A stretch of DNA of 64,000 bases from an uncultured bacterium (GCA_964652195.1 CAZZBB010000060.1:39003-103002), one strand, 5' to 3'; shown: positions 12,322-60,540, counted from the first letter of the stretch. Program-made: numbers and translations. Notes: generated by a model not told the origin, from the sequence alone.

Positions 12322-12334
12322 TTTAATTCCCTTT

Positions 12335-14829: not shown

Positions 14830-14932
14830 AGATAGCATTCACCAGACTGTTGTTTGATAAGAGCTTATTAATTGATGAGTTAAGCCACAACCTGAAACTT
14901 GCCGAAAAAGATTACTATTGACTAAATCGGCA

Positions 14933-17940: not shown

Positions 17941-17951
17941 TGTAATATGTT

Positions 17952-24952: not shown

Positions 24953-24973
24953 TAGATACGATAGTTTGAAGTA

Positions 24974-25088
24974 ATACCATTTCTGATTATTAAAGTCTCT
25001 TAACTGGTAGCATAAACTTCCAGTTTGTGCAGTATTTCAAGACATGCTTAACAACTGTTCACGGGATAAACATTTTTAGAAATGGTAT
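24974..25088. mobile_element. MITE-like element, copy c
   Basis: Terminal inverted repeats ataccatttctgat ... agaaatggtat. Core ggtagcataaacttccagtttgtgc. Confidence 0.45.
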
Positions 25089-25099
25089 AAGGATTAGAT

Positions 25100-25924
25100 A
25101 TGACACCAAAACAACGCTACTTATTTGATGTAACCGGGTATCTTCATTTGGAGAATGTAATCACAGGAGATGCATTGGCTGAAGCATCTGTAGCGGTTGA
25201 TAGATATATTACAACACCACCTGATGAATTACCTCCTGGATTTGAACAGAAGGGATTACATCAACACGGATTCGCTTTTGATAAATCCCTTGAATGTCTA
25301 ACGATGCATTCTGCACTTTGGCCGATAATTAAGGAACTCACAGATAACCAACCTCGGTTTGGAAGAGGGTCACTTAAACACGACAAACATGATTTATGGC
25401 AGGCAGGAGAAAACGCACATGTAAATCCGGGTGGACTGCATTGCGCACGTGATGATTATGGATGGTATAGCACACGTTACGAGGCAAACAACGGACATAT
25501 ATACTGCGATAACTTCGTCTGTTTTCCATATTTTACGGATGTGTATCCGGGAGATGGGGGACTAATTGTAATTCCCGGTTCACATAAAAGTGAGTTCGAT
25601 AGACCGAAGCAGCTTTTAACACTTGATGAAGCAGATGGTATTGATCCTATCGATGATCCTGTATTTGTAAATATCACCCCGAAGGCAGGAGATATTGTGA
25701 TTATTTCTGAACTGCTTACACATGGTGTATTGCGATGGAAACCGAAAAATAGAGACAGAAGGTTTCTTGTATTTCGATATTTCCCACAATTCTCTGGAAC
25801 ACATAACCTACCACAACCAATACTGGATCGATTATCACCAGAGACGTTGGAATTAGTTGCATCTGAACCGTATGGTCACATTAAAGAAATCGTGAAGCAG
25901 GATCAGGTTACACTAACAGTTTAG
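25100..25924 (+). CDS. phytanoyl-CoA dioxygenase (PhyH)-like protein
   Basis: 274 aa. N-terminal YLFDVTGYLHLENV and GSHK...H motifs. Confidence 0.65.
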   Translation: MTPKQRYLFDVTGYLHLENVITGDALAEASVAVDRYITTPPDELPPGFEQKGLHQHGFAFDKSLECLTMHSALWPIIKELTDNQPRFGRGSLKHDKHDLWQAGENAHVNPGGLHCARDDYGWYSTRYEANNGHIYCDNFVCFPYFTDVYPGDGGLIVIPGSHKSEFDRPKQLLTLDEADGIDPIDDPVFVNITPKAGDIVIISELLTHGVLRWKPKNRDRRFLVFRYFPQFSGTHNLPQPILDRLSPETLELVASEPYGHIKEIVKQDQVTLTV

Positions 25925-35746: not shown

Positions 35747-35793
35747 ATCTTAGTCCTCTTGATAGGAACATCTAATTCAATCGAATTAAGATC

Positions 35794-37197
35794 TTACACA
35801 TTCTGTCTCGGAGGAGCATATCTTGGATGGAAAGAATCCTCTCCAAATCGTCCATCACCAAGTTTGGCTGCTTGTCCACCTCCTGTTACTGCACATCTGG
35901 CACCATCTAATTCTGGAACAACATACCGCTCAAACCATGCCCCCATCTGTTGCCGCATATCACTAATTAAGGCATGATGAGACTTATCATCTATGAGATT
36001 CTTGCGTTCACGCGGGTCATTCACTAAGTCATACAGTTCATGTGGTCCGTATGCATATCGGTGGACATATTTCCACTCTTGTGTTCGGATCATACGAACG
36101 GGACCATATTCATCAAAAACCACAATTTCATCTTTCGCATCGTTCGTTTCACCCGTTAACGCGGAGACAAAACTTTTCCCTGGTGACATATCATCATTTG
36201 GATCAGGTAATCCCAGATAATCAAGGAGTGTCGGCATAAAATCGTATTGACTCACCATCGCTTCGTTTACATGTCCTTCTGGAATTCTTCCAGGATGGCT
36301 AATCACAAATGGAACTTTAACAGAATTTTCATACATATTTAGTGGAAATGTGCCATTTCCTTTATGCCAAAATCCGTTATGTCCACACGAATAACCGTTA
36401 TCGCTACTGAAGATAATTAGCGTGTTATCCCGAATCCCCAACTCAGTGAGTCTGTCCAATATACGTCCAACATTTAGGTCAAGTGCTGTTATTGCGGCGA
36501 AATAACCTTTGAGTGATTCACGATTACCCATGTGGGCGGCAGCTCCTTGAATTGCCCAAGGGTGTAATGCTTCCTGTGGACAGGTCTTAAAGGGACAATC
36601 GTCATAAGAATCCACAATATCTTGTGGGTGACCTGTAAACGGTGTATGTGGAGCATTATAATTAACACTTAAATAGAATGGTCCTTCACTATTGGCGGAG
36701 ATAAAACCTAACGCATCATCTGTTATGACATCTGTGAGATACCCAGGTTGCATTTCAACTTCTCCATCCCGAATCATATCTGCATCATTATATTTACTTC
36801 CACCAGTGAGTAAAGTAAACCAATGACTAAATCCATGCTGTGGCGTCAAACTATCCCCAAGATGCCATTTACCACTTAACCCGACAGTATAGTTATTATC
36901 GGCAAGTACATCGGAATAACAGGTCAATCCTTCCAAATATCTTGCTGGGTCAGGGGGCATATTTCCATCACGTATCCAGTCGTGTACCCCGTGTGCTGAG
37001 GGAATACGTCCTGTCATGAGACTTGCACGTGCTGGAGAGCATACAGGACTGGTACAGAAGAAATTGGGAAAATACATACCTTCTGATGCTAATTGGTCAA
37101 TATATGGGGTACGCACCTCATCGTTTCCGCTGCAACCCATTGCCCATGGACCTTGATCGTCTGTTAAAACAAAAATGACATTTGGTTGGTTATCCAT
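35794..37197 (-). CDS. sulfatase paralog without signal peptide
   Basis: Same CTSPVCSPARASLMTGR motif and highly similar to its neighbour. Starts MDNQPNVIFVLTDDQGPW. Confidence 0.9.
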   Translation of the reverse strand: MDNQPNVIFVLTDDQGPWAMGCSGNDEVRTPYIDQLASEGMYFPNFFCTSPVCSPARASLMTGRIPSAHGVHDWIRDGNMPPDPARYLEGLTCYSDVLADNNYTVGLSGKWHLGDSLTPQHGFSHWFTLLTGGSKYNDADMIRDGEVEMQPGYLTDVITDDALGFISANSEGPFYLSVNYNAPHTPFTGHPQDIVDSYDDCPFKTCPQEALHPWAIQGAAAHMGNRESLKGYFAAITALDLNVGRILDRLTELGIRDNTLIIFSSDNGYSCGHNGFWHKGNGTFPLNMYENSVKVPFVISHPGRIPEGHVNEAMVSQYDFMPTLLDYLGLPDPNDDMSPGKSFVSALTGETNDAKDEIVVFDEYGPVRMIRTQEWKYVHRYAYGPHELYDLVNDPRERKNLIDDKSHHALISDMRQQMGAWFERYVVPELDGARCAVTGGGQAAKLGDGRFGEDSFHPRYAPPRQNV

Positions 37198-37241: not shown

Positions 37242-37866
37242 TTATGACTTTTCAGTTGTCGTTCCTTGTTTTTGTAATTCTTCAAGGAGCCAAGCAATGT
37301 CTCGGTAGCACTTATCAAACGAATCTGATCGACGTGCTTGTTCGATGTCAAAGAGGGCAGCAAGCGCAGGTTGGTCAAGGGTTTCACGATATTTTCTATT
37401 ATTCTCCATTTGCTTGCTTAACCACTCCTTTGCCCCACGTATATTCTCCGGACTACTTGGCGGGTTAATGTCATCTTTTAAACCTCTCTTGCCACGAAGC
37501 GATTCAGCAGCGGCAAGAAACCAAGACTCAAATTCTTGCTTAGCAAGAACAACGGCAATCGGTATATTACGAAAAATTGGTGAAATCCGATTTAGTAAAG
37601 TCGGTGCCAAATCTGCCGGACAGTCATCATCACTGTCAAGAATAATGAGTATAGTACCTTGTTTGCTTATACTCCGAATTGCTATGCCAACTGCATGTTC
37701 AAGTTCACCTGTCTTAAAGACCTTATTTCTGGGAAATCTGATGGGAGTAGAAATGACAGGAACGAGTTCAGGACAATGGATTGCTGCTACGCGTCGAATC
37801 AATATTGGCACGGCTTTTACTTCCCCTTTTCCCTCAACAACACATCCTATTTTAACCTCATTCAAG
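37242..37866 (-). CDS. DUF4276 family protein (Toprim-like: conserved E and DxD)
   Basis: VEGKGEVKAVPILIRR, ILDSDDDCP, AKQEFESWFLA. Probable TTG start overlapping the ATPase stop codon. Confidence 0.6.
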
Positions 37867-39132
37867 TGTTCCCTCTTTTTCGTCAGTATCTCTCTTGATG
37901 TAATCAAAAAGGTTAAGCTGTTCCACTTTCGGACCATAACCTTTAGGTAACTGAGTAGGATCGGGTGTAAATTGATCGAGACGTAGTAATTCACCGGCTG
38001 TACACAAGTTGTCCCCCATTATAGATCTTCCTACTTTATCTACAGGTGCGATTAATGTATTACCATCCTGTGCTTCAACTGCAAGAATTGAGTCCACATC
38101 CAAGTGTTTGTCATCAAGCAGATCTGGACTGTGGCTTGTTATTAAGACCTGTCTTTTGTAAGCAGCATCCCGAAGTGCATCAAGTAATACCCCTGATGCA
38201 GCGGGATGAAGGGCGATTTCTGGTTCTTCAATTCCTACGAGTGGTACACTATTTTGTGTGCCTTGATCTCCTTGAAAAAGTGCTACCAAAATTCCCAGCA
38301 CACGGAGTGTCCCATCAGACATGTTATTTGCAAGAAATCTCCAAGTGTGTTTGTCACCAGCAACATCCTGTCTGAATTCCAATGTTTCTTTCGGTCCAAA
38401 TACTTTGACATTTACCTTATGTATACCAGGAACAACTGCTGCAAGATATTCCTCAATGTTTTCCTTCACTGCAGGTGAAAGCTGAGAAAAAATACTCGTT
38501 ATGTTGCCACCGTCACGTGTAAGTACAGCGCGAGGATCCGGTGTTTGTAGGTCTCGGATTTTATCAGGGTTAAGATTATAAAATCCCATTCGAGAAAATG
38601 TATCGTAAATAGGGCGAAATTCAGGTAAACCTGAAGCATTTAACAGATAAAGACGATCCGCCGCAGCCGCAGGTGGAACATTTAAATTTGTGTCAATCAC
38701 AGCACCTTCATCTATATGGAAGTATATATTAGGTGTAAGATGATTGCCATTATACAGTCTACACACCTCTGTCTGAACCCTATATTCAACGTTTTTATCA
38801 CGTGTACGGTCATCTCGTTTACAAGCACCGATGCGGAAGGCATAGTATCCAGTTAAACCATCAGGAATAGCAAATTCAAACCCTATACTAAAATGGTTTG
38901 GGTGTCCTCGGGAACGACGACGAACATCGTTGATACCTCCACGATCGCGTATTGCGTGTTCTAAGGAGTAATTCAATGCATCAGCAACAAACCGCAATGC
39001 ATCAAGAAAGTTGCTTTTACCCGAACCGTTTCGACCTACGAGGAACGTCAAAGGCTGCAAATGTATATCACATGCAGCGATACTCTTATAGTTTTTTAGA
39101 ATGACTCTCTTAATGAACGTTGAATCTTTCAT
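37858..39132 (-). CDS. ABC-type AAA ATPase (AAA_15/AAA_21-like), partner of DUF4276
   Basis: Walker A GRNGSGKSNFLDALRF. Walker B/D-loop GIEEPEIALHP. H-loop LITSHSPDLL. 424 aa. Confidence 0.75.
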   Translation of the reverse strand: MKDSTFIKRVILKNYKSIAACDIHLQPLTFLVGRNGSGKSNFLDALRFVADALNYSLEHAIRDRGGINDVRRRSRGHPNHFSIGFEFAIPDGLTGYYAFRIGACKRDDRTRDKNVEYRVQTEVCRLYNGNHLTPNIYFHIDEGAVIDTNLNVPPAAAADRLYLLNASGLPEFRPIYDTFSRMGFYNLNPDKIRDLQTPDPRAVLTRDGGNITSIFSQLSPAVKENIEEYLAAVVPGIHKVNVKVFGPKETLEFRQDVAGDKHTWRFLANNMSDGTLRVLGILVALFQGDQGTQNSVPLVGIEEPEIALHPAASGVLLDALRDAAYKRQVLITSHSPDLLDDKHLDVDSILAVEAQDGNTLIAPVDKVGRSIMGDNLCTAGELLRLDQFTPDPTQLPKGYGPKVEQLNLFDYIKRDTDEKEGTLE

Positions 39133-39167: not shown

Positions 39168-40013
39168 TTACCGTACATATTCCTCCCCACGGTGTTCAGC
39201 GATCCAAGTCTTCAGTGGTACATCAACATCTGTGGGTTGCCACCAACCTTTAATATCCACACCATCTCCTAACAACTGTCGTCTTATCGGATCACACTTG
39301 TCCAAGATTTCTGGTGGCATCAGATTGTAATCCAAACCACGTAACCATCGATAACTATACCCTATAAAGAAGACTTTACGTATAACATCAGAGAAATTCC
39401 ACCCCCTTGAATGCCACATCCTTCTATCAAAAAGCACTGCTGTACCACGTTTGACAAGAAGGTCTATAGCACCTTCTGGATCAGAATCAGGATCATCTCG
39501 TGGGGGTAAAGAATCAAGTTTGTGGCTCCCAGGAATGAGCCGCATAGCTCCGTTATCGCGATGCGTAACATCAGTTAACCAGTAGCTGACCTTTAATGAG
39601 AGTCGCGGATGCGGTCTTTCCATCTCTGGAACAGGTCTGCCACCATCTTGATGCCAATGTGCTGCTTTTTCAACACGTTGAGTTTCAGGGGGTTCAGGTG
39701 GATACATGATAAGGTGTGAAATATACAGTTGAATATTCCAACCCAAAATATCCCATAGCAGCGGAAATACCTTTTTATTATCAAGCAATTCCAATAATAT
39801 GTCGTCATCAATGATAGTGCGGAACTTTGATAACAACTTATGTGATGCTAAACCTGTTTTTTCACGTTCCTCAGCATCAAGACGGTCAGCTACCACCTCT
39901 AATGCTTCAACCATATCTTGACTGATTGCATCCTCAACAATAAGGTATCCATTATCATTGAAGGCTTTTAGTTGTTCAGTGGTAGCACAATATTCAAGCC
40001 AACTTGTATCCAT
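39168..40013 (-). CDS. phytanoyl-CoA dioxygenase (PhyH)-like protein
   Basis: 281 aa with a PhyH-like N-terminus (LKAFNDNGYLIVEDAIS) and HxD...H. Confidence 0.6.
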   Translation of the reverse strand: MDTSWLEYCATTEQLKAFNDNGYLIVEDAISQDMVEALEVVADRLDAEEREKTGLASHKLLSKFRTIIDDDILLELLDNKKVFPLLWDILGWNIQLYISHLIMYPPEPPETQRVEKAAHWHQDGGRPVPEMERPHPRLSLKVSYWLTDVTHRDNGAMRLIPGSHKLDSLPPRDDPDSDPEGAIDLLVKRGTAVLFDRRMWHSRGWNFSDVIRKVFFIGYSYRWLRGLDYNLMPPEILDKCDPIRRQLLGDGVDIKGWWQPTDVDVPLKTWIAEHRGEEYVR

Positions 40014-42416: not shown

Positions 42417-44609
42417 CTAATTTTTTTGAAATTCTTCATAAATTTGTCGTGCTTTACTATCAACATCCTGAAGATAATTCCGCCCAATATACTCAATATA
42501 GGATTGAGTTAATTCTCCACTTGCTTCACCAAATGCCTTAGCATATTTACGACACATATCCTTATCAGGTCCAGAAGCATATGCCTTCGTTTTTGCATCT
42601 GTACCAGATTTCCTAACTTCAACAAACATGTCACCAAAGATAAGATAACTGCCATCCCCTACAAATTGCACATTCTCAAGAGACGTAAAATCAAGGTCGG
42701 GGAGTGTTTCTGATAGAATTCGTCGTACTTGATCTATATCAATTTTCCCTTCTCTTAAAGCAATTGCTAGTCCTAAAAAAAATAGATCGTTTTTATCCCG
42801 TTTAGTCTCACCTTCTATCTTCGCACTTCTTAGTTTTTCTGGATTCGGTTCAGACTCGTTGTAATAGGTAATATCTTCTCTCACATCACAAGTTGCCGTG
42901 ATTCGACTTTCATTGAAAACAGTTTCAAGATAATCTGACAATGGAATGTCCAATTTCTTACAATGAGCAGCAAGAGCAGTAACCAATACCATAGATTCCC
43001 CAGCAGATTTCTCCCGCATAGCAATAGCAGACCGTCCACCTTGACTACGTATCAATTCTTCAGGACCAGTTATCATACCACCACTCTCTTCCCCAGCAAA
43101 TACCAAACGCGGTTGCATCCCCAGATTCACGGTTTTACCATAAACATCCTGAACAACAACAGGTTCATTTGGCTTTTCAGCAAGTTGTCGTTCTATCTTT
43201 TTCATCACTGAAGCGATTTCCTTGAAACCTACTGGAACATTGATTACATTGACATCGTTAGTAGATCCCCACTGGTCCCAAGCAAGTGCCGAGGGTGTGG
43301 TCTTTATCATAAATCGTGGATATTTTTCCCATAAACCCGCTGTAATAAGCTGTTTTCTATGGAAATCCATTAACATGAGAAACGCCTGATTTGGGGTATA
43401 GACTGTCAAGAGTCGTTCTTCATCAAGGATTAGATATGTGATACCAAGTTGTTCTAACAGCTCTGCCCGCGAGATACCCTCTATCTCACATACAATTAGC
43501 CGATCTCCATCTGGATCAGTCGTTTCAATTATTGTTCCTATAGGTTGGTCTTTTAGTTTCGATGCATATTCAGCAGATTTGACTACATCAATAATACTAA
43601 AATCACACCCAAGATCATAGAATTCAGTATTACCAGTATTTGGATTTCTATCCAGTTTTCCAATGTTATGATATAACGGGTCCGGTTCAACATGTAACCA
43701 ACGAACAGAATCCGCAATCCCTAACCGCTCAAAGATAGAACGCATAGGACGGTACATACACCCCCCGACACAATCGACGACAATGGATGGTTTTACCTCA
43801 CGAATCAGCTTAAGGTTGGCATCCGTTGCTACACCACTTTTTAGGTAACCAACATAGATATGTATGCCATCATGGAGTTCGTCTAACCTTTCATAATCAA
43901 TGTTTTCGTGGTTAACCGCACTAAATTCAATTGTATACCCTTTGGTTTCAGCAGTTTTTAGTATTTCTTCAATTTTTTTAACAAACCGCATAGACTCTTC
44001 TGGTAAGTATTGGCTTCCTTGATTGTTTAAATCTTTGGTTGCATTTTTTGTGCTGACAGAATGGCTTGAGGTTACATGTTCCCCACCATCCAAATCTAAA
44101 ATAAAAATGAGAAACGATGCCATCCAAATCGGCAGTGTGCCAAACCCTTTGGGAACATAAGTCTTTATATTGTTTGCCGCTTGGATACGAGAGATGAATT
44201 CTACGTATTTCTGTGAGTTATAACGCACCTCACATCCAGCAAGTTTTTCTACTGGCTTCCCTTCTAACAATTCTTTAGCTACAAGGCTTTTACCAAGCGT
44301 TGCTAAAATAACCCCAATCTGATTTATTGGAAACCTTGTATCCCAAGGATAAAGGATATTCTGCGGTCCTCGAATACCAGCTGTTGATACCTGCGCTTCC
44401 TTTGCATAATTTTTATACCAATCCCATAACTTCAAACGATTAACTACTTCCTTATTGAGTTTGAAACCAAACGCATCAGGTTCATCTTGAGGGAAAAGGG
44501 GTTCTTTGATGTCTTCTGGTGTGTTTTGTTCAACAACAGCAAATAGTTGCTTTTCTGTTCGGTTCCGTTTCTCAAGATAAGCTGTATCTACAGCAATAAC
44601 CATCTCCAC
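42417..44609 (-). CDS. alpha-D-phosphohexomutase family protein (PGM/PMM-like), unusually long at 730 aa
   Basis: TAGIRG, active-site TSSHS, Mg-binding DPDGDR, sugar-binding GEESGG. Confidence 0.75.
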   Translation of the reverse strand: MEMVIAVDTAYLEKRNRTEKQLFAVVEQNTPEDIKEPLFPQDEPDAFGFKLNKEVVNRLKLWDWYKNYAKEAQVSTAGIRGPQNILYPWDTRFPINQIGVILATLGKSLVAKELLEGKPVEKLAGCEVRYNSQKYVEFISRIQAANNIKTYVPKGFGTLPIWMASFLIFILDLDGGEHVTSSHSVSTKNATKDLNNQGSQYLPEESMRFVKKIEEILKTAETKGYTIEFSAVNHENIDYERLDELHDGIHIYVGYLKSGVATDANLKLIREVKPSIVVDCVGGCMYRPMRSIFERLGIADSVRWLHVEPDPLYHNIGKLDRNPNTGNTEFYDLGCDFSIIDVVKSAEYASKLKDQPIGTIIETTDPDGDRLIVCEIEGISRAELLEQLGITYLILDEERLLTVYTPNQAFLMLMDFHRKQLITAGLWEKYPRFMIKTTPSALAWDQWGSTNDVNVINVPVGFKEIASVMKKIERQLAEKPNEPVVVQDVYGKTVNLGMQPRLVFAGEESGGMITGPEELIRSQGGRSAIAMREKSAGESMVLVTALAAHCKKLDIPLSDYLETVFNESRITATCDVREDITYYNESEPNPEKLRSAKIEGETKRDKNDLFFLGLAIALREGKIDIDQVRRILSETLPDLDFTSLENVQFVGDGSYLIFGDMFVEVRKSGTDAKTKAYASGPDKDMCRKYAKAFGEASGELTQSYIEYIGRNYLQDVDSKARQIYEEFQKN

Positions 44610-45007
44610 TCTCCAATACTTTTTGATATTATACCATAGACTTTCAATTTGTGATATGTTAATTCATTGAAGACCTTTGTTAATAAGATTAAGAAATCTC
44701 TTAGATAAGAATAAGTCTTCAAATTCTTTCTTATAGTAATATATTTGCATTAAATAAAATCTTATGTTAAACTATATTTCACGTTTCTCATTAATTCAAC
44801 TCTTGTATTTATAACGCAAATTGATATTGTAGATATACAGATTCAATTTACGACTGTTGGAGCGGGAAGCAGAATCATTTTATTTTACAAGAGTAAAGTA
44901 TAAATAATAATAATAATGTGGAAGACGTAACATGAATTTTTTGTATCAAAATCATTAAGGTTTTGCATTCCTTAATCTTCAATTACATACATGAAAGGAA
45001 TTACAAC

Positions 45008-45373
45008 ATGAGTGACGAAGTCATTTCGCGTATAAAGCAACGCCGTCGTGAGCTAAAAATGACACAAACAGAATTGGCAAAAGCAGCGAATTTAACTCCT
45101 GCAGCTATTTCTCAGTTTGAGTCAGGAACTCGTAAACCTTCTTTTAATACACTTTCAAGTTTATCCGATGCATTGAAGGTTACAACAGATTTCCTGCTTG
45201 GAAAGAAAGAGCGGGGTTATGACGACTTATTGGCTGATCCAAAGGTTAACTTGATGTTCAGAGGGATGATGGAATTTACAGAAAAAGATAAAGACACACT
45301 TTATGAATTCTATGCATTTCTTAAGTCAAAAGCAGAATCCGTACCAGGTGAAGGTTCTGAGGATGCTGAGTAG
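45008..45373 (+). CDS. XRE-family HTH transcriptional regulator
   Basis: MTQTELAKAANLTPAAISQFESGTRKPSFNTLSSLSDAL. Confidence 0.8.
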   Translation: MSDEVISRIKQRRRELKMTQTELAKAANLTPAAISQFESGTRKPSFNTLSSLSDALKVTTDFLLGKKERGYDDLLADPKVNLMFRGMMEFTEKDKDTLYEFYAFLKSKAESVPGEGSEDAE

Positions 45374-45387
45374 TCGATTCAAATATA

Positions 45388-45428
45388 CGAAGGGTAGCCC
45401 TGCGGCTAAAGCGTAGGGCTACCCTTCG
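45388..45428 (+). terminator. strong hairpin after the XRE gene
   Basis: cgaagggtagccctgcg-gctaaag-cgtagggctacccttcg. Confidence 0.45.
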
Positions 45429-45536
45429 CGATTTAAAAATCAAGATTTTTCAATTGACCCAGATGTATCGCAGAATTACTCGGTATTGTAATTTTGGAGC
45501 GGGAACTTCCTGATAATTGTGATGGTTGTTTGATGC

Positions 45537-45773
45537 GTGTTGGGAATGCATCCGGTAAAAGCATATCTTCAAAGTGAAAAAAGAGCGAATCAATTTGCAG
45601 TTGAATTGTTGATGCCTACTCCCATCTTTTTAACAGACTCAGCCTCACTTTTACACCGACCATATAGTGATCATTCGGCAGGTAAAAACGACAAGATTAT
45701 TAAACATTCACGGCGAATTCCAGATACAAAGCAAGTAATCACCTTTCTACGTCTCCCCACTAAATTTTGCTAA
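45537..45773 (+). pseudogene. ImmA/IrrE-family metallopeptidase remnant (C-terminal fragment only)
   Basis: The family motif ANQFAVELLMP is present, but the HExxH region is missing upstream. Confidence 0.4.
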
Positions 45774-45905: not shown

Positions 45906-47939
<2,034 letters not shown>

Positions 47940-47980: not shown

Positions 47981-48006
47981 AAAAAAAGACGGAGAAACTC
48001 CGCCTT
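47981..48006 (-). terminator. rho-independent terminator of the aldehyde dehydrogenase gene
   Basis: Minus-strand sense: aaggcggag-ttt-ctccgtc followed by TTTTTTT. Confidence 0.5.
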
Positions 48007-48057: not shown

Positions 48058-49482
48058 TCACAAAGTGTGATTAGATAAATTGTCTGCAAGGGTTAATCGT
48101 CTTTGACGTGTAAACGTTCGGGGGCGGGTGTATCCTTCACCAGTTGGTCCGGCGATAGTCATAGCCAAAAATCCTTCACCTTCTAATCCACAAGATGCAT
48201 ACGAAGGTGCATTGACAACTACAACGGTACAATTCATTGCTTTAGTATATTGTGTGATTCGTGCTGTATTATTGGTATGAATCATGGCAGTATGTCCTCT
48301 TCCACCGTCGGCTGCAACAGCACCTTTGAGGGCTTCATCAAAATCCATCACACGAACTACTGGCAGAATTGGCATAAGGTATTCATTGATGACAAATCCA
48401 TGGTCAGCCGGAACTTCAACTACAATTGCAACGGTATTCGCTGGGGCAGTAATCCCTGCAGCATCTAAGATGGTCTTCGCGTCTTTACCAATGTATTCTT
48501 TATTTGATTCACCATTCTCTGTGACAACAGCTTCAAGTGCTTCACGTTGGCTTTCACCAAGAAGGTGTCCACCATTTTGTGTTAATTCTCGGATTGCATC
48601 ATCCGCAACGGATTCAACAACAAAAAGTGCTTTTTCACCTATACACAACAAGTTATTATCAAAGCTTGTTCCTGAAATAACATGTCTTGATGCCTTTGGA
48701 ATATCAGCAGTTTCATCAATAATTGCTGGAGGATTACCTGGTCCAGCTGCGATTGCTTTTTTACCACTCGATAACGCAGCTTTTACAACACTCCTACCCC
48801 CAGTTGCAACAACCATAGCAATGTCATCATGATCCATAATCTCTTTGGCTGTTCGCAATGTAGCATTAGCAACGGATGTAAGTAGATTTGCAGGTCCGCC
48901 AGTTTTCACAATCGCTTCATTTATTACGTGCATTGTCTCTTCAGTACATTCACGTGCGTTTGGGTGAGGACTAAATATCACAGCATTACCTGCAGCAATC
49001 ATAATTATCGCATGATTTATTACGGTTGATGTAGGGTTTGTTGTGGGTGTAATCGAATTTATAATTCCATAGGGAACATATTCTATCAGGAGTGTACCGT
49101 TATCACCAGAGATAGACTCTGAAATAAGATCCTCCATACCAGGTGATAGATTAACCGCACCTTCATTTTTCATCACTTTATGCTCAGGATTTCCCATTTT
49201 TGTTTCTTGAACAGCTAAATCTGCCAGTCTCTTTGCATTTTCAAGCGAGGCTTTTTTCATAGCTTCAATTATTTCGCGTCGTTTGGCAAATCCGAGTTTA
49301 ATGAGATCATTTTGTGCGGTTTTGGCAGCCGCAATTGCCTCCTCAACAGTATTAAAAACCCCTGAACGGGATGATGAAGTTGTGACTGTTGGAGAAGGTG
49401 TAGGGACAGTTTTGTTTTGTTGCAGTGTAGTTAGGACTTGGGAAACAATTTGTTCAATTTGTTTCTCATCAATTTGCGCCAT
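48058..49482 (-). CDS. CoA-acylating aldehyde dehydrogenase (PduP/EutE-like) with a BMC encapsulation-peptide-like N-terminus
   Basis: SFDNNLLC catalytic Cys region. Amphipathic helix IDEKQIEQIVSQVLTTLQQ at the N-terminus, then a T/S/P-rich linker. Confidence 0.8.
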   Translation of the reverse strand: MAQIDEKQIEQIVSQVLTTLQQNKTVPTPSPTVTTSSSRSGVFNTVEEAIAAAKTAQNDLIKLGFAKRREIIEAMKKASLENAKRLADLAVQETKMGNPEHKVMKNEGAVNLSPGMEDLISESISGDNGTLLIEYVPYGIINSITPTTNPTSTVINHAIIMIAAGNAVIFSPHPNARECTEETMHVINEAIVKTGGPANLLTSVANATLRTAKEIMDHDDIAMVVATGGRSVVKAALSSGKKAIAAGPGNPPAIIDETADIPKASRHVISGTSFDNNLLCIGEKALFVVESVADDAIRELTQNGGHLLGESQREALEAVVTENGESNKEYIGKDAKTILDAAGITAPANTVAIVVEVPADHGFVINEYLMPILPVVRVMDFDEALKGAVAADGGRGHTAMIHTNNTARITQYTKAMNCTVVVVNAPSYASCGLEGEGFLAMTIAGPTGEGYTRPRTFTRQRRLTLADNLSNHTL

Positions 49483-49742
49483 TCAGTCCTCCAATAATTC
49501 AAATCAGGTAGATATAAACTGAAAACGAAGAAACCAGTAAACCTTGTAAGAGCCACACCGATTCTTAACAAGAATTCAATAAGAAATTTCTGTGTTAGTA
49601 TCGGTTCATTTAAAATATAGTAAATAGTTTTGAGGGATTCAATAGAACAGACATTTGTGATGTCGATGAATCCTACTAAACTTTATCATGCTCACTATTA
49701 GACGCTGGTACAAGTCACACTGATCCTAACGCATACAACGGA

Positions 49743-50036
49743 TTAGGCATCCGAATCATCGGAAGCTGCACCAAGAATTGCTTCGACATCGGAATGTGGA
49801 CGAGGAATAACATGTACCGATACCAATTCACCAACTGCTTTGGCTGCTTCAGCACCAGCATCTGTTGCTGCTTGTACAGCACCTACATCGCCGCGAACCA
49901 TGACCGTGACAAAACCCCCACCGACCTGTTCTTTTCCAATTAATTTCACATTCGCGGCTTTCACCATTGTGTCAGCTGCTTCAACAGCACCAACTAATCC
50001 TCGAGTTTCAACCATTCCTAATGCTTCATTGCTCAT
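49743..50036 (-). CDS. bacterial microcompartment shell protein BMC-H (PduA/EutM/CcmK family)
   Basis: [26 protein letters not shown]...[19 protein letters not shown]. 97 aa. Confidence 0.9.
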
Positions 50037-50444
50037 ATCATATGCTCCTTATCTGTTCTATATATGTAAAATACGACGGACTGATTACTCTCAATAATAC
50101 TTGTAAGGTGATAATGAAAATGCAGTCCTTTAATCATTACGAACTGATTTATATGATACTATAAATGCGTGTTTTCTGCAAATCAATTTTCAAGTAATAA
50201 CTATGATTTCACCTTATACAATATGGATAGGTATAGCTTAGTTATTTCAAACTTAATCTTGACTTTTAATAGGATATTTGATAAAATATCTTGTAGACTA
50301 AATAACAATCAGTCAGCAAACTTTCTTAATTAATAGAATCTGAAAACACTTCATCGTCCATACACTGTTTTTGTGTTGGATTTCCAGTTGTACTTGAAAA
50401 TAATATACCCTTGGACGGTTCAGATTCTGAACGAAGGAGACTAC

Positions 50445-51998
50445 ATGTTGGATAAGAAAATGGAGGCGAAACAGGTTGCGGGTGTTAGAAAAACCCTGTC
50501 TGAAGTTCCCGCTCCCTCCGAGTATTCCCCTGTAACAGAATCAATTGAACGGGCAACAGAATTAGGGGAAGATGGAATAGCATCAGCGTTAAAGAATTTT
50601 AGTTCTATGCCGCAATCCACGAATGTATTCGCTAATCCTGTTTTACACAAGACTGGCGTAAACTGTGGAGACACACAAATAACACTCAATATCAGAAGTT
50701 TTGGAATTCGCGGAATTGTAACTGAAAGCGAAATAATAGCAAATCAACTTTCACCCGCTTTTGTTATCTTTGCCGGTCTCTTTGGCAGAAAACCTATACA
50801 ATCTGATGAATTAGATGAAGAAGCTATCCTTTCAGAAATAATAGACAAGAAATTTTATCGTTGTACAAACCTTCGTCAAGAAGGACTTTCAGGGAATCAT
50901 CGCCTCATCAATCAGGTAGCCGAATTTGTAAAAGCCTTCCCTAATGCTGGACCTGAAACAGTCATTCAACATTTTTCCACACTCCGAAAATTAAGCAATC
51001 CAAATCAAAAAGGTATTAAAGGTACAAGAAAGCAAGGGGCACTTCTTCTTGAGTTAATCACTACACATATGGAAAATGTTGCCTTGGGAACATTGTCTGT
51101 GTATATGCGTCATCAGCTCAGAAACAGTAACGCATTACATCCACAAGTGCTGGCAATGCGTGCAAATGATCTTATTGAGGAACACAAGAAAAGTGGAAAA
51201 ACCTCCTTCCAAACCTGTTATAGTCTTCTATTAGGTAGAGATGCCAGTTCTGTTGAATCGAATATATTAGAACGGATGGGGATCATTCAAACACATCATG
51301 GATCTGCTGGTTCAAACGTCGTTGCTCGATACCTTGCCACCTTATATGCTGGGGCAGTGTCAGATTTCTTTGTAGCCGCACAGATGACCTTAGACGGTGA
51401 TCGACATTTTGGGGCTATTCATGATATGACATCTTTTATTAATCAGATCGAACCTCTTGATGAAACTGCAAGGGAAACCGCGATTCGCGAGAGAATGACT
51501 ATTGCTCTTCCTACCTTCGGACATCCAGAAATTGCTGCTGCTGGACGAACAGGTGAAATCCAACAAGATCCAAGACCAGCAATCTATTTCAATCCTTTCT
51601 TAGACGCTGTTAACACAGGTGAAATCCAACTCACAGATAAACAGAGAAAACGCTTAGCAATTATACAACGCATATATCAAATCGCCTTCATTGAAGGGAT
51701 GGTTCGACCAGGACGTGAGAACGAACCACCTCTCCGTTTAACGCCTAACACAGACTTCGGTGGCTGGGCTGTTCAGGAAGGTTTGGATATATATGAAAGT
51801 GATAGAACATTCCTGACTTATATCTTCCGAGGATTTGGTTGGATAATGGATGCGCGCGAACAGCTTCAGATGAAGATTATCCGACCTGTCATTCCCCCAG
51901 ATCCCGATATTATTCCTACCCCATCTGATGATATGACGGTACCAAACGAGGTCGTATCATTACACAACATGATGGCGGGTGCTAATATATTTGAATAA
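50445..51998 (+). CDS. highly divergent citrate synthase-fold enzyme (citrate synthase-like / citryl-CoA lyase-like)
   Basis: Positional equivalents of the CS motifs: IIQTHHGSAGSNVVAR (LHADHEQNAST), DGDRHFGAIHD (GPAHGGAN), TFGHPEI...DPRPA (GFGHRVY..DPR), PNTDFGGW (PNVDFYSG). AAGGAG RBS before the ATG at 50445. Confidence 0.55.
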   Translation: MLDKKMEAKQVAGVRKTLSEVPAPSEYSPVTESIERATELGEDGIASALKNFSSMPQSTNVFANPVLHKTGVNCGDTQITLNIRSFGIRGIVTESEIIANQLSPAFVIFAGLFGRKPIQSDELDEEAILSEIIDKKFYRCTNLRQEGLSGNHRLINQVAEFVKAFPNAGPETVIQHFSTLRKLSNPNQKGIKGTRKQGALLLELITTHMENVALGTLSVYMRHQLRNSNALHPQVLAMRANDLIEEHKKSGKTSFQTCYSLLLGRDASSVESNILERMGIIQTHHGSAGSNVVARYLATLYAGAVSDFFVAAQMTLDGDRHFGAIHDMTSFINQIEPLDETARETAIRERMTIALPTFGHPEIAAAGRTGEIQQDPRPAIYFNPFLDAVNTGEIQLTDKQRKRLAIIQRIYQIAFIEGMVRPGRENEPPLRLTPNTDFGGWAVQEGLDIYESDRTFLTYIFRGFGWIMDAREQLQMKIIRPVIPPDPDIIPTPSDDMTVPNEVVSLHNMMAGANIFE

Positions 51999-52050: not shown

Positions 52051-53319
52051 GTGAATCAGAGAGGAATACCAGTGATTGATTTTGACCAATTGACGCCTCC
52101 ATCCGATGGTGAGACAATATACTCCGTCAATGGACAGAGTGTTATCCCTAATAAACCTATTATCCCTGTAATTGAAGGGGATGGCATCGGACGAGACATC
52201 ATGAAAACAACTCGTCGTGTTGTTGATGCTGCAGTCGAGAATGCTTACGGTGGCAATAAGCAGATTGTATGGTTTGATGTCTATGCCGGTGAAAACGCAA
52301 TGGAAAAGTATAACGAATGGTTGCCACAGGATACATTTAATGCCATTGAGCACTTTCGTGTTGCATTAAAAGGACCATTAACGACTCCTGTCGGTGGTGG
52401 TTTTCGGAGTTTAAATGTAACTTTACGGCAGGTTCTCGAACTATATGCATGTGTTCGACCTGTTCGATATTTTCAAGGTGTCCCCGCTCCCGTCACACAT
52501 CCTGAAAAGATGGATGTCGTCATTTTTCGTGAAAACACGGAAGATGTTTACGCCGGTATAGAATGGGAACAAGGAACTCCTGAGGTAAAGAAAGTTATTG
52601 AGCTGCTGAAAACTGAGATGGGGGTGGAGATCCGTGAAGATTCAGGCGTCGGTATTAAACCTATTAGTATTTTTGGTACCAAACGTTTAGCACGGATGGC
52701 AATTCAATATGCAATTGAGCACCGTAGAAAAAGTGTTACCTTTGTCCATAAAGGAAACATCATGAAATTTACTGAAGGGGCATTCTGTGCTTGGGGTTAT
52801 GAACTTGCAAAAGAGGAATTTTCTGATGAAACGATAGCCGAATCCGAGTTGTATGATCAATATGACGGAAATGTTCCTGATGGAAAAATAGTTGTTAATG
52901 ACAGAATTGCTGATAGTATGCTTCAACAGATATTAACTCGGACAGATGAGTATGACGTAATTGTCACACCGAATTTGAACGGGGACTATCTCTCCGATGC
53001 AGCTGCAGCCCAAGTTGGTGGTATAGGGATGGCACCGGGTGGTAATCTGAACGATGAGGTGGCATTATTTGAAGCAACACACGGCACTGCCCCCAAATAC
53101 GCGGATCAGGATGTTGTCAATCCAAGTTCACTTATCCTCTCTGCAGTCATGATGTTAGAGCATATCGGTTGGCAAGAGGCAGCAGATTTAATTATCACTG
53201 GACTTGAAAAGACTATCCTTCAGAAACGTGTTACATACGATTTGGAACGTCTCATGGAAGGTGCTACAAAGGTTCGCACATCTGAATTTGGTGAAGCAAT
53301 TATTGAGAACTTTTTGTAA
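52051..53319 (+). CDS. icd: NADP-dependent isocitrate dehydrogenase
   Basis: [37 protein letters not shown]. 422 aa. Confidence 0.9.
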
Positions 53320-53536: not shown

Positions 53537-54442
53537 ATGAAATTATTTTTTAAAATTTTCGCGTTAGTAATATATAGTTCCTTTGCAGTTTATATGATTT
53601 GCTGCGGGGAAAATGAAAATGCAGCGTTTATAAATGCATACCCGCCAAACAACAGCACAATCAACTCGGATGATGTGATTACTGTTATCTTTGACAACAC
53701 ACCAGTGATGGTAGACGTAGAAATACAAAGGCTTAATGACTCAAATTTTTTATGGGAATTGGATGAACAAACTCTTACTGTTCGAGGGAATTCGAAATTC
53801 TCTTCTGGTCGGAATTACGTTATTATAATCTCCTGGGCAACAGGTCGCAAAATCTTAAACTACACAGTGCGTCGATCACCTCCCAAAGTGATTGATGTCC
53901 TCACTGCAGCATTAGTAAGCGCTTCACCCGCAAGTGGTGATCTCGCAGCAAATGGTAGCATTACCGTTACATTCGACAACAATCCTGGTGACGTAACAGC
54001 CAGTGCCGGTACAGTTGCTGGATCAGGTAAATCTCGTACCATCTCTGGCCCCTTTACACCTGGTGCACTTGCACTCAACCTCAGTTGGACAAACAGTGAA
54101 AGTAGTCATACACTGAACTATACAGTGTATGACGCAGATGAAACCGCTCCAGAAGTTACAGCCAGTAGTCCTAAAGACGGTGCTGAAGGTGTGGACCCCG
54201 CAAAAGTGTTTGAAGACGGTATCGAGGTCACATTCAATGAAAACGTCACTGGAGATTTAATGCTCTTGGATGGCGATGATGATGTAGGTTGGACATCCGA
54301 AACTTCAGATAACAAGATTACCCTTACAGGGAACGCCGGACAAGAACTCAGCAACGAAACAGAATATGAAATTGCAGGTACAGTGAAAGACGGTAATGGG
54401 AACGAAGCGGAAGTCAGTATTACGTTTGTTACAAAAGACTAA
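53537..54442 (+). CDS. secreted/membrane-anchored hypothetical protein with Ig-like repeats
   Basis: 301 aa. Hydrophobic N-terminus. Repeated beta-rich T/S/V segments. Confidence 0.5.
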   Translation: MKLFFKIFALVIYSSFAVYMICCGENENAAFINAYPPNNSTINSDDVITVIFDNTPVMVDVEIQRLNDSNFLWELDEQTLTVRGNSKFSSGRNYVIIISWATGRKILNYTVRRSPPKVIDVLTAALVSASPASGDLAANGSITVTFDNNPGDVTASAGTVAGSGKSRTISGPFTPGALALNLSWTNSESSHTLNYTVYDADETAPEVTASSPKDGAEGVDPAKVFEDGIEVTFNENVTGDLMLLDGDDDVGWTSETSDNKITLTGNAGQELSNETEYEIAGTVKDGNGNEAEVSITFVTKD

Positions 54443-54552: not shown

Positions 54553-55479
54553 GTGGCAAGAAAAAAAATTAGTGTAATCGGGGCCGGCAATGTCGGTGCG
54601 ACAGCAGCATTCCTAATCGCGCAGAAGCAGCTTGGTGATGTCGTGATGATAGACATTGTGGATGGTGTGCCACAAGGTAAGGCACTGGATATGGCAGAGA
54701 TGGGACCGGTAGAATTGTTTGACGCTGCGATTAGTGGTGATCTGGATTATTCCGCTACAGCAGATTCCGATTTAGTAATTATTACATCCGGTTCTCCACG
54801 AAAACCCGGGATGACTCGTGAAGACCTATTGCAAACGAATGCCAATATCGTTGGTAGTGTCACAGAAAATGTGGTGAAACATTCGCCTGATACTATTATT
54901 ATGATGCTAACCAACCCACTTGATATCATGACCTACCATGCGTGGAAAGTATCGGGATTCCCTTCTCAACGTGTTGTTGGACAAGCCGGTGTTTTGGATT
55001 CTGCTCGATTTCGTTATTTTATTTCACTTGAACTGGGTGTTTCCGTAGAAGATATCCATGCGCTCGTTCTTGGTGGACACGGTGATACAATGGTCCCCCT
55101 ACCGCGTTATACGACTGTCAACGGTATCCCTATACCCCAATTGATTTCTAATGAGCGGATTGAAGAGATGGCACAACGCACCCGTGATGGTGGTGCTGAG
55201 GTTGTAAACCTTCTCAAGACCAGTGGGTATTATGCAGCTGGTGCATCATTGGCACAGATGGCAGAAGCAATCATTTTAGATAAAAAACGTCTACTTCCCT
55301 GTTCTGCACACCTCACAGGACAATACGGAATCAATGATCTCTATATTGGTGTGCCAATTAAACTGGGTGCGGACGGTATTGAAGAGATTATTGAGATTGA
55401 ACTGACAGATGAAGAAGTAAATGCTCTGCAGACATCCGCACAAACGTATCGTGAAGGCATTGCATTATTAGGATATTAA
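54553..55479 (+). CDS. mdh: malate dehydrogenase (LDH-like MDH)
   Basis: KISVIGAGNVGATAAF, catalytic GGHGDTMVPL. 308 aa. Confidence 0.9.
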   Translation: MARKKISVIGAGNVGATAAFLIAQKQLGDVVMIDIVDGVPQGKALDMAEMGPVELFDAAISGDLDYSATADSDLVIITSGSPRKPGMTREDLLQTNANIVGSVTENVVKHSPDTIIMMLTNPLDIMTYHAWKVSGFPSQRVVGQAGVLDSARFRYFISLELGVSVEDIHALVLGGHGDTMVPLPRYTTVNGIPIPQLISNERIEEMAQRTRDGGAEVVNLLKTSGYYAAGASLAQMAEAIILDKKRLLPCSAHLTGQYGINDLYIGVPIKLGADGIEEIIEIELTDEEVNALQTSAQTYREGIALLGY

Positions 55480-59811: not shown

Positions 59812-60540
59812 CTATGCAAACGGGAAGGTCCCTTGATATCCGCGAGGTCGAGAGACATGCCAAACACCATCGTACATTGGTGTAACTTGATAGTGGCATA
59901 CGACATTACTCCGCTCCATGTCATCTCGTTCTTTTGCCCCTTGGTGTGGCATATGATTGATAAACACAACACAATCCCCTGCCTTAGGATACAGCATAAC
60001 ATGCTCTTGTGATTCGCACCATTCCTCAAATTTAGGACGGTCTAAAGGATATAGATGGGGTGGTTCATTTATATGTCCATCTTTTACGAACTTAAGATGT
60101 CCTTCACCCGGATCATTATCTTGAAAATAGTAGGTTGTGTTGATACCAGCCGGTGCCATGGCAAAAGGATGTTCTTCAACATACCGTTTCTCATGCCAGT
60201 AACCATAAAAATCCATGTGCCATTCTTGTAGATAAGGACCGGGATTGATATGTGCGCGAAGACTTCGTAGTTGGCACTGTTTACCCATTAAACCTTCAAG
60301 ATAGGGACGTACACTTGGATGGCCTACAAGCGGTTGGTATGTATCAGGTTCACGATCAAGTAGCGAATCAAACCACATATTTCCTACAGCATTTAGCCCT
60401 TCTTCCCATCCCTGTTCTCGGGCATAATTCACGCGTTGTCTAATATGTTCAGTCTCTTCAGAGGACAATGCTCCTTCAATTAAAAAATATCCATTCTGTA
60501 GTAATTGTTCAACGTTTGTTTTATTATCTCCCATGATCAT
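59812..60540 (-). CDS. phytanoyl-CoA dioxygenase (PhyH)-like protein
   Basis: 242 aa. GYFLIEGALS N-terminus, HMDF..., HQG. Confidence 0.5.
   Translation of the reverse strand: MIMGDNKTNVEQLLQNGYFLIEGALSSEETEHIRQRVNYAREQGWEEGLNAVGNMWFDSLLDREPDTYQPLVGHPSVRPYLEGLMGKQCQLRSLRAHINPGPYLQEWHMDFYGYWHEKRYVEEHPFAMAPAGINTTYYFQDNDPGEGHLKFVKDGHINEPPHLYPLDRPKFEEWCESQEHVMLYPKAGDCVVFINHMPHQGAKERDDMERSNVVCHYQVTPMYDGVWHVSRPRGYQGTFPFA

Follow-up and report, generated by a model that had tools for sequence, protein, structure and literature searches.

A divergent citrate synthase-like gene in a citZ-icd-mdh-like order beside a microcompartment satellite in Candidatus Poribacteria

The 64,000-nucleotide stretch of DNA analyzed here (the window), from an uncultured bacterium assigned to Candidatus Poribacteria, encodes a very divergent citrate synthase (CS)-like protein. 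This protein is probably the housekeeping citrate synthase of its lineage, encoded in a citZ-icd-mdh-like operon that has an unrelated satellite locus of a bacterial microcompartment (BMC) as its neighbor. The matches to the CS-like protein carry the poribacterial name as well. The CS-like gene and the gene for the shell protein BMC-H are divergently transcribed (Table 1), and the housekeeping neighbors around both units include ligA and dnaK. An initial annotation, whose open reading frames (ORFs) are all present, had raised the possibility that the two units are linked in a microcompartment-associated acyl-CoA condensing step that feeds the adjacent icd and mdh.

Table 1. Features of the locus, with positions counted from the first nucleotide of the window
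Feature	Position	Strand	Basis or remark
LigA (NAD-dependent DNA ligase)	45906..47909	-	Housekeeping; usually comes after the ALDH gene
Intrinsic-terminator-like hairpin and T-run	47986..48006	-	9-bp stem, 5 GC pairs, tail TTTTTATGTA
Aldehyde dehydrogenase (ALDH), EutE/PduP-type CoA-acylating, 474 aa	48058..49482	-	PF00171, NF011927, solved relatives
ALDH residues 1-22, encapsulation-peptide-like N-terminal amphipathic helix (MAQIDEKQIEQIVSQVLTTLQQ)	49417..49482	-	Conservation
ALDH residues 23-38, Pro/Thr/Ser-rich hypervariable linker	49369..49416	-	Conservation
BMC-H hexamer shell protein (predicted), PduA/EutM-like, 97 aa	49743..50036	-	PF00936, structural relatives
Sigma-70-like promoter of CS-like gene (TTGACT, 17 nt, TG-TAAAAT)	50259..50287	+	Conserved block
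Conserved leader of CS-like gene, ~150 nt	50294..50444	+	Long-range stem, conserved across genomes
CS-like gene, divergent citrate synthase-family enzyme (predicted), 517 aa	50445..51998	+	PF00285, fold, triad
icd, NADP-isocitrate dehydrogenase	52051..53319	+	TIGR00183, 672 bits; 52 nt past the CS-like gene
Big_5/CopC-like protein, 301 aa	53537..54442	+	Between icd and mdh; Pfam scan
mdh, malate dehydrogenase	54553..55479	+	TIGR01763, 468 bits

The CS-like protein, named "hypothetical protein" in NCBI records, is a genuine, very divergent member of the citrate synthase fold and, judging from its triad and its operon, presumably an active enzyme. The initial annotation had proposed a profile search and a structure prediction, and both agree with this assignment. 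The protein passes the PF00285 model (E value of 5.2e-11; 42.6 bits against a gathering score of 27) over profile positions 69 to 356 of 357, while its best score against the NCBIfam CS equivalog models is 17.4 bits, where the cutoffs are 502 to 572. The best match to a solved CS has an E value of 0.013, identity to solved CSs is 12 to 18%, and one canonical-type CS is 27% identical over 209 aa. When the AF2 model (pLDDT of 79; pTM of 0.84) was compared with the PDB by Foldseek, all 50 matches listed were citrate or 2-methylcitrate synthases (one of them within an F-box complex) at a probability of 1.0, with target-normalized TM-scores mostly between 0.57 and 0.69 among the top matches, a fold search that does not tell CS from PrpC. 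The protein thus shares its fold and its His/His/Asp triad with the PF00285 family (type I and type II CS, PrpC, and citryl-CoA lyase or the ACLY C-terminal domain), but it is longer by about 65 residues at the N terminus and by 30 at the C terminus, has RHFGAIHD where others have LHGGANE, contains an 8-residue insertion, and fails the curated equivalog models. The high divergence, the N-terminal extension, and the insertion had all been recognized initially.

The triad is formed by His285 (51297-51299) in IQTHHGSAGSN, His321 (51405-51407) in DGDRHFGA, and Asp375 (51567-51569) in QQDPRPA, which align with His177, His212, and the Asp of DPR in 2c6x, the equivalents of His274, His320, and Asp375 of the pig enzyme. 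Likewise, THHGS, DRHFGA, and FGH align with TEHGMNAST, GPLHGGA, and GFGH of 2c6x. The initial annotation was right in stating that the catalytic residues are retained, but their assignment was slightly off, as the His285 motif was not listed and PNTDFGGW, which was, presumably holds no triad residue. PNTDFGGW corresponds to PNVDFYSG, a conserved citrate synthase motif; 8qwb carries PNVDFYS in its alignment with the CS-like protein. Besides having the PNxDF and GW motifs, the protein has Arg residues, within LRLTPNTDF and FRGFGW, that align with canonical positions. The triad and two aligned Arg residues (R431 and R462) are invariant in 24 homologs with 56 to 84% identity. Pairwise identity in the catalytic segments is 0.75 to 0.80. 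The insertion (AAAGRTGE, at 51534-51557) follows the GH motif and precedes the catalytic Asp, and without it FGHPEIIQQDPR aligns straight through against FGHRVYKTKDPR. The sequence found here, FGHPEIAAAGRTGEIQQDPR, in which 14 residues separate H and D compared to 6 in 2c6x, departs from the CS signature, the PROSITE pattern G-[FYA]-[GA]-H-x-[IV]-x(1,2)-[RKTQ]-x(2)-[DV]-[PS]-R. Confidence of the AF2 model is low in the catalytic loop (pLDDT below 50 at residues 287 to 291 and 366 to 368).

Relatives of the CS-like protein are encoded in 211 species-level genomes, and the best 80 of the 211 are all from Poribacteria. The family is narrow, comprising 72 clusters at 50% identity and full length in only 4. 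The CS-like gene is followed on the same strand by icd in every one of the 80 Poribacteria genomes, with a median gap of 74 bp, and mdh is found within 10 kb in 30 of 66. In a lineage with 56% identity (loci L001 to L003), the CS-like gene, icd, and mdh form a tight operon in which 40 and 12 bp separate the genes, and no BMC gene is present within 10 kb. More distant members of the family (46 to 48% identity) do not adjoin icd. At a mean identity of 78%, where icd and mdh reach 90% and 96%, the CS-like protein evolves faster than the genes beside it. The gene order resembles that of the Bacillus subtilis citZ-icd-mdh operon, reportedly described by Jin and Sonenshein in the 1990s, in that the three genes occur in this order on one strand and are tightly spaced in the distant poribacterial lineage. 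It differs in that the window has a Big_5-domain gene between icd and mdh and that mdh has moved away in many Poribacteria. The Big_5 gene is a variable insert that only some genomes have; its product, with a hydrophobic, signal-peptide-like N terminus, is a putative lipoprotein. The arrangement suggests a citZ-icd-mdh-type TCA operon whose genes would be cotranscribed.

The promoter and leader of the CS-like gene are conserved in genomes both with and without BMC neighbors. The leader contains a long-range stem in which AGAATCTGA pairs with TCAGATTCT, with CGTCC and GGACG as its inner part; 87.6% of cells are paired, as opposed to no more than 47% after sliding of the partners, and covariation is weak. 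An invariant CUUUCU in the leader could pair with the ribosome-binding site of the gene (AAGGAG, at 50434-50439), which precedes an ATG start codon. For the BMC-H/ALDH unit, only unconserved consensus matches to a promoter were found, and the terminator-like hairpin, about 50 nt past the ALDH stop codon, closes this unit ahead of ligA. The two units appear to have separate promoters.

BMC-H passes PF00936 (E value of 1.7e-29; 102 bits, with the cutoff at 24.5) over residues 5 to 80. It is full length, collinear, and non-permuted relative to EutM, PduA, and HO BMC-H and has the edge Lys (AADTMVKAA); it is predicted to form hexamers that tile a shell. E values are 1e-34 to 1e-40 against EutM and PduA and 1e-31 against the Haliangium HO BMC-H (5djb), and the best match is an engineered BMC-H tandem fusion (6ner; 4e-63). 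The pore loop is GGG, while that of PduA is GSG. No further BMC-H, BMC-P, or BMC-T gene was found in the 64-kb window, in agreement with the initial description of a lone shell gene, either in Pfam scans of nine ORFs and of another 38 that are 100 aa or longer or in phmmer searches in which BMC-H, EutN, and CcmL served as queries against every six-frame ORF with a length of 50 aa or more.

The adjoining ALDH matches PF00171 (2e-36) and also the EutE/PduP-type model NF011927 of NCBIfam, for which it scores 581.9 bits (cutoff, 403). Its closest solved relatives, 4c3s (5.5e-116) and 5jfl/5jfm, have the title "aldehyde dehydrogenase" and are BMC-associated enzymes from Clostridium phytofermentans and Rhodopseudomonas palustris. 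The catalytic Cys motif FDNNLLCIGEK aligns with FDNNLPCIAEK of 4c3s, giving the shared form FDNNxxC(I)xEK. The N terminus, initially described as encapsulation-peptide-like, is a well-supported candidate encapsulation peptide because a helix almost invariant across 120 homologs (mean pairwise identity of 0.90) is followed by a hypervariable linker (0.41, compared to 0.81 to 0.90 in the flanks). The solved catalytic cores begin at query residue 34. In its hydrophobic spacing, the helix is similar to the PduP targeting peptide. Unlike PduP and EutE, this ALDH has no signature aldehyde-producing enzyme nearby.

The BMC-H/ALDH pair belongs to the published FRAG2 type, a fragmented BMC found mostly in Poribacteria, with BMC-P as a triplet along with two BMC-H proteins (Sutter 2021 supplement, PMC8217296). 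Poribacterial BMC groups A to D have been defined, and in SAG 4E, BMC-H (or2341) adjoins pduP (or2342) (Kamke et al. 2014, PMC3909097); all Poribacteria loci have been called satellite-like, some with AldDH or PduL (Axen 2014, PMC4207490). The window shares with these the phylum, a single BMC-H whose neighbor is a PduP-type AldDH extended at its N terminus, and a setting among unrelated housekeeping genes without a main locus, and nothing substantive sets it apart. With one shell gene in 64 kb and a pair that relocates as a two-gene unit, the satellite character proposed initially stands, whereas the "main" locus expected elsewhere is not there to be found, the poribacterial BMC genes being published as a fragmented type. 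The frequent arrangement of ligA, BMC-H/ALDH, and CS-icd is one of which we found no mention in published descriptions of poribacterial BMC loci.

The BMC-H/ALDH pair lies upstream of the CS-like gene in 45 of 72 Poribacteria genomes (62%); in the other 27 the two units are apart and both persist. Two chromosomes that lack the adjacency carry the pair intact at another site, which in one case is about 480 kb distant. The adjacency spans 72 to 95% identity and is more persistent than a random neighborhood, but the reason may be no more than conservation of a housekeeping block. The neighborhood is not kept across the genomes of 80 species and therefore gives no support for shared function. As part of the overall reading favored here, the adjacency is likely common yet dispensable rather than a sign of functional coupling. 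The link between the units that was suggested initially is not supported, in that the CS-like gene stays with icd in all 80 genomes and takes its promoter and leader along both with BMC-H as a neighbor and without it.

Several observations were counted against a housekeeping citrate synthase: the extreme divergence of a normally conserved enzyme, the catalytic-loop insertion modeled with low confidence, the faster evolution relative to icd and mdh, the frequent BMC adjacency, and the distant family members that are not beside icd. A canonical CS elsewhere in these genomes, if present, would make this role less certain. Such an enzyme forms part of an alternative that we consider rather unlikely, namely, that the CS-like protein is a paralog with a different reaction. 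Candidate reactions, which share this low probability jointly, are those of a 2-methylcitrate synthase using propionyl-CoA from the pathway of the PduP-like ALDH, another condensation of an acyl-CoA with a 2-oxo acid, or a citryl-CoA lyase-like cleavage. The 2-methylcitrate synthases among the best fold matches, weak NCBIfam and PDB matches to citryl-CoA lyase, and the PduP-type ALDH next door would fit a paralog, and RHFGAIHD together with the insertion could alter specificity. Nevertheless, icd is the invariant partner, mdh occurs in a tight, ancestral-looking operon, and no prpB-, prpD-, or acnD-type genes are present among the annotated genes and ORFs of the whole window and loci L001 to L004. 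Moreover, the protein has the full-length two-domain CS fold, with about 450 core residues, and not the lyase form of about 260 aa.

Far less probable is a physical coupling of the CS-like enzyme to the FRAG2 BMC, in which the helix at its N terminus would serve as encapsulation peptide, with the enzyme docked to or inside the shell. On this reading, the enzyme would condense ALDH-derived acyl-CoA with oxaloacetate in or at the shell, recycling CoA; if this were true, the organelle would feed the TCA cycle directly, and CoA would be recycled without a phosphotransacylase. Residues 2 to 19 are predicted by AF2 to be helical, followed by a Pro-rich stretch, the helix is weakly amphipathic (muH of 0.23), the CS-like gene often adjoins BMC-H, and FRAG2 is without a known signature enzyme. 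However, conservation is the inverse of that expected for an encapsulation peptide: residues 1 to 19 are variable (pairwise identity of 0.41), while the "linker" lies within residues 20 to 66, which are conserved (0.64) with many invariant residues, among them P23, S26, Y28, and P30 (numbering of the 518-residue alignment). In P0124, a distant member, almost no helix precedes the conserved VP..S.Y.PV motif. Neither the encapsulation peptide suggested for this protein nor the microcompartment-associated condensing step is supported. PduL, moreover, is already encoded in Poribacteria for CoA recycling, adjoining another BMC-H, and the separability of the units, the conserved CS promoter, the terminator-like hairpin, and the CS-icd-mdh operon without BMC neighbors also argue against coupling. 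It is similarly hard to credit that a citrate synthase survives here only as a relic, non-catalytic or regulatory, as the divergence of the CS-like protein, the failure of every curated CS equivalog model, and the poorly modeled active-site loops might suggest, given the invariant triad and Arg residues, the strong constraint on the catalytic segments, and its retention as the first gene of the icd operon across 211 species.

The gene identities, the fold, the motif alignments, the synteny counts, and the conservation patterns are observed; enzymatic activity, substrates, encapsulation, and cotranscription are inferred. Our preferred reading, a housekeeping citrate synthase beside a BMC satellite, would place two independent units back to back. 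BMC-H and ALDH would be one dispersed module of a fragmented FRAG2-type microcompartment, with PduL, the second BMC-H, and the BMC-P triplet encoded elsewhere, as the literature indicates; the amphipathic helix would target ALDH to the shell lumen, where it would oxidize an aldehyde to an acyl-CoA. The CS-like protein would be a lineage-specific, highly divergent, catalytically competent citrate synthase that joins acetyl-CoA and oxaloacetate in the cytosol; its gene, under a conserved promoter and leader of its own, would be transcribed together with icd and, in the ancestral state, mdh.

The microcompartment part of the locus is the published FRAG2/Poribacteria satellite arrangement and adds nothing new, and adjacency to shell genes is a poor guide to cargo in fragmented BMC systems. 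The useful result is the citrate synthase. In Poribacteria, which are abundant as symbionts of sponges, a very divergent form of this enzyme appears to catalyze entry into the TCA cycle. If KEGG- or equivalog-based reconstructions also miss it, the cycle may be wrongly scored as lacking citrate synthase. The catalytic-loop insertion and the altered substrate-loop motifs make this family a natural test case for drift of the CS active site.

The ORFs described in the initial annotation are present where it placed them, and those at issue are listed in the table together with their flanking signals. Our results demonstrate that the 517-aa protein encoded divergently from the microcompartment (BMC) genes is a genuine, very divergent member of the citrate synthase (CS) family.

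Features of the BMC-H/ALDH unit and of the CS-like gene and its downstream genes (window coordinates)
Feature	Position	Strand	Evidence or description
Terminator-like hairpin, after ALDH	48006-47986	-	9-bp stem, 5 GC pairs
ALDH (acylating aldehyde dehydrogenase), 474 aa, downstream of BMC-H	48058-49482	-	Curated EutE/PduP-type model NF011927, 582 bits (cutoff, 403)
BMC-H, 97 aa	49743-50036	-	Single-domain BMC shell protein, PF00936, E 1.7e-29
Sigma-70-like promoter and ~150-nt leader of CS-like gene	50259-50444	+	Conserved in Poribacteria with and without BMC neighbors
CS-like gene, 517 aa	50445-51998	+	ATG start behind AAGGAG RBS; PF00285, 42.6 bits (gathering score, 27)
icd	52051-53319	+	Clear equivalog (curated model)
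Gene between icd and mdh	53537-54442	+	Big_5 and CopC-like domains; signal-peptide-like N terminus, putative lipoprotein
mdh	54553-55479	+	Clear equivalog (curated model)

The CS-like protein scores far below every curated citrate synthase model. Its similarity to solved structures is marginal (E 0.013 with the single sequence and 3e-5 with a profile), and its identity to a canonical-type CS core is 27% over 209 residues. The active-site segments are nevertheless alignable: IQTHHGSAGSN with ILATEHGMNAST, DGDRHFGA with KGPLHGGA, PTFGH with GFGH, and PNTDFGGW...FRGFGW with the canonical PNVDFYS...AR.xGW (8qwb), at which the Bacillus subtilis enzyme (2c6x) itself differs, having TNVEFYAA...SRMVGW. 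When the eight residues AAAGRTGE are deleted, the alignment runs unbroken through FGHPEIIQQDPR versus FGHRVYKTKDPR, so that Asp375 falls on the catalytic Asp; the insertion noted in the initial annotation is thereby confirmed. His285, His321, Asp375, Arg431, and Arg462 are invariant in homologs down to 56% identity. An AlphaFold model built from 24 homologs (pLDDT 79, pTM 0.84) gave Foldseek PDB matches of which all those listed are citrate or 2-methylcitrate synthases (probability 1.0, 12 to 18% identity). The citrate synthase fold initially proposed is thus borne out by the PF00285 match, the aligned triad His285/His321/Asp375, and the modeled fold. The protein carries about 65 extra N-terminal and 30 extra C-terminal residues and, judging from its sequence and model, is probably catalytically active.

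The family is narrow and well conserved. It comprises 633 cluster representatives at 90% identity, the named ones all "hypothetical," and only 72 clusters at 50% identity, 4 of them full length, among 1.8 billion representatives. Relatives occur in 211 species-level genomes, the best 80 of which are all Poribacteria.

Synteny was compared across 80 Poribacteria genomes. In 80/80, the next gene after the CS-like gene is icd, on the same strand (median gap, 74 bp), and mdh lies within 10 kb in 30/66. Of the 72 genomes with sufficient flank, 45 have a divergent BMC-H and ALDH pair no more than 1.5 kb upstream and 27 do not. The proposal that a microcompartment-associated acyl-CoA condensing step feeds icd and mdh is therefore not upheld; among the partners of the CS-like gene, icd alone is invariant. 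In two chromosomes lacking the adjacency (4,832,559 and 4,252,156 bp), the pair is intact at another site, in the former about 480 kb from the CS-like gene and divergent from different genes. A lineage 56% identical in the CS-like protein has a tight operon of the CS-like gene, icd, and mdh (gaps of 40 and 12 bp); glutamate synthase lies upstream of it, and BMC genes are absent within 10 kb. More remote family members (46 to 48% identity) have neither an icd nor a BMC neighbor. Upstream alignment showed that a TTGACT-17-TGATAAAAT promoter and the leader precede the CS-like gene with or without a BMC-H neighbor. Since the pair and the CS-like/icd genes separate across genomes while the promoter and leader stay with the CS-like gene, the breakpoint lies between two self-contained units. 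The icd-mdh interval is itself a variable slot among the compared loci (L007 to L086), being empty or holding other genes, with mdh in some cases several kilobases off or missing from the flank.

The two N termini show opposite conservation patterns. In 120 ALDH homologs, residues 1 to 22 (MAQIDEKQIE[EQ]IV[SA]QVLxTLQ) are nearly invariant, the next 16 to 20 residues form a hypervariable Pro/Thr/Ser/Ala stretch, and the conserved core begins at SRSGVF; mean pairwise identities are 0.90 for the helix, 0.41 for the linker, and 0.81 for the core. Solved catalytic cores start at residue 34 of the query, and the hydrophobic spacing of the helix resembles that of the PduP targeting helix. This pattern agrees with the earlier suggestion of an encapsulation peptide (EP) and, as far as sequence can tell, is the classical EP architecture. 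For the CS-like protein, the same suggestion is not supported. Residues 2 to 19, a predicted, weakly amphipathic helix, vary more than any other part of the protein (identity, 0.41), whereas residues 20 to 66, from the supposed linker onward, match the core in conservation (0.64) and include invariant Pro, Ser, Tyr, and Pro residues as well as a SMPQST.VFANP block that does not vary. In a distant member (P0124), the conserved VP..S.Y.PV motif comes after only about eight residues. Because this pattern is the reverse of that in ALDH, the features of an EP are not found. Hydrophobic moments (0.36 for ALDH versus 0.23 for the CS-like protein, and 0.26 for the PduP sequence) separate the two N termini poorly, so we relied on conservation instead.

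The BMC-H sequence is collinear with EutM, PduA, and the Haliangium HO BMC-H. The best solved relatives of ALDH are the BMC-associated enzymes 4c3s and 5jfl, and the motif around the catalytic Cys is aligned. BMC-H is the sole shell gene, as initially described; no second one of any class was found in the 64-kb window. Dispersed BMC genes are published for Poribacteria: groups A to D, including BMC-H beside pduP on SAG 4E (Kamke et al. 2014, PMC3909097); loci all termed satellite-like, some with AldDH or PduL (Axen et al. 2014, PMC4207490); an expressed BMC-H/PduL pair (Jahn et al. 2016); and the fragmented type FRAG2 (Sutter et al. 2021 supplement, PMC8217296). The BMC half of the locus therefore belongs to a known kind, its arrangement is already known, and, given this dispersed type, a "main locus" for the pair is not expected. 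The unit would contribute one shell paralog and an EP-tagged acylating dehydrogenase to a dispersed FRAG2 organelle. A search with BMC-H for its PduL-linked paralog was saturated by matches from other phyla (78 to 88% identity), and one multicontig candidate (P0346) was another BMC-H and ALDH pair. In two loci (L089 and L090, both 8001-9811), a 478-aa ALDH comes immediately after a BMC-H 84% identical to that of the window, with NAD kinase, SurE, and PdxJ among the surrounding housekeeping genes, so that the same two-gene satellite module recurs in a neighborhood unlike the Poribacteria loci examined.

The CS-like protein could instead be a paralog with another specificity, such as a 2-methylcitrate synthase. 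Its altered substrate loops and a possible canonical CS elsewhere in these genomes leave this reading a minor share, and we regard it as unlikely. A tblastn search with a canonical-type CS of 1.78 Mb of compared loci matched only the CS-like gene itself, a literature search for a canonical CS in Poribacteria returned nothing relevant, and the rows listed in the SAG 3G annotation table (Jahn et al. 2016 supplement) include no pfam00285, COG0372, or K01647, with K00031 (icd) absent from them too, so that they carry no weight here. Coupling to the microcompartment, for which the adjacency in the window speaks, is very improbable. Poribacteria also already have PduL, the enzyme that usually recycles CoA, encoded next to their other BMC-H (Jahn et al. 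2016; Kamke et al. 2014, PMC3909097). A citryl-CoA lyase or ACL-type role was rejected as the main reading because the protein has both CS domains at full length in the CS fold and its gene is linked to icd and mdh.

Homologs carry the name Candidatus Poribacteria, and the PhyH, sulfatase, and WD40 genes are consistent with this phylum. Four PhyH-family genes, two tandem sulfatases, and a 628-aa WD40-repeat protein are present (24062-25924, 39168-40013, 59812-60540, 34223-37197, and 27155-29041); PhyH abundance and eukaryote-like repeat proteins have been reported for Poribacteria (Kamke et al. 2014, PMC3909097). Two adjacent minus-strand ORFs share one DUF3179 domain between them, 7955-8383 matching its N-terminal part (profile 2-64) and 7085-7933 its C-terminal part (74-196 and beyond); they are probably one gene (7085-8383) broken by a frameshift or stop. 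An HTH_3 regulator (44963-45373, plus strand) precedes a 78-aa ORF (together 44963-45773) with ANQFAVELLMP, a motif typical of ImmA/IrrE-type M78 peptidases; this copy looks decayed compared with the intact Peptidase_M78 and HTH pair adjoining ligA in another locus (L087). A defense/mobile-type island (11137-19319) holds Fic/DOC, type I R-M genes (HsdM, 12843-14474; HsdS, 15223-16458), an AAA_35 ATPase, and a HicB-like/DUF6575 fusion (17952-19319). On the minus strand (37242-39132), an AAA_21/AAA_15 ATPase (37858-39132) overlaps a DUF4276 protein (37242-37994), a candidate two-gene defense-type system. A 730-aa minus-strand protein (42417-44609), with weak matches to three phosphoglucomutase domains (E 1e-6 to 8e-4), is by sequence a predicted divergent phosphoglucomutase-like enzyme, detected in 2/80 Poribacteria loci (L008 and L011; 80 to 91% identity).

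A long-range stem is present in the leader of the CS-like gene: GGAAUCUGA with UCAGAUUCU and an inner CGUCC with GGACG (in DNA letters, AGAATCTGA with TCAGATTCT and CGTCC with GGACG). The leader also has an invariant CUUUCU (CTTTCT) able to pair with the RBS. Across 27 sequences, with the structure taken from the window itself, the stem pairs in 87.6% of cells, compared with no more than 47% when the partners are slid. Changes on both sides are seen at two inner-stem pairs; in the outer stem, compensatory changes are absent. By itself, the fold does not reach significance (z = -1.29), no Rfam family matched anywhere in the window, and in a second clade the 3' half differs. The leader may be a structured translational control element for the TCA operon.

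A citZ-icd-mdh arrangement occurs in B. subtilis, and the order of the CS-like gene, icd, and mdh is of this type. The gene would encode a cytosolic citrate synthase in a presumably cotranscribed operon, which would convert acetyl-CoA and oxaloacetate to citrate via the conserved His/His/Asp chemistry. The CS-like protein is a new and strongly divergent member of a known enzyme family, and its role is most likely housekeeping.
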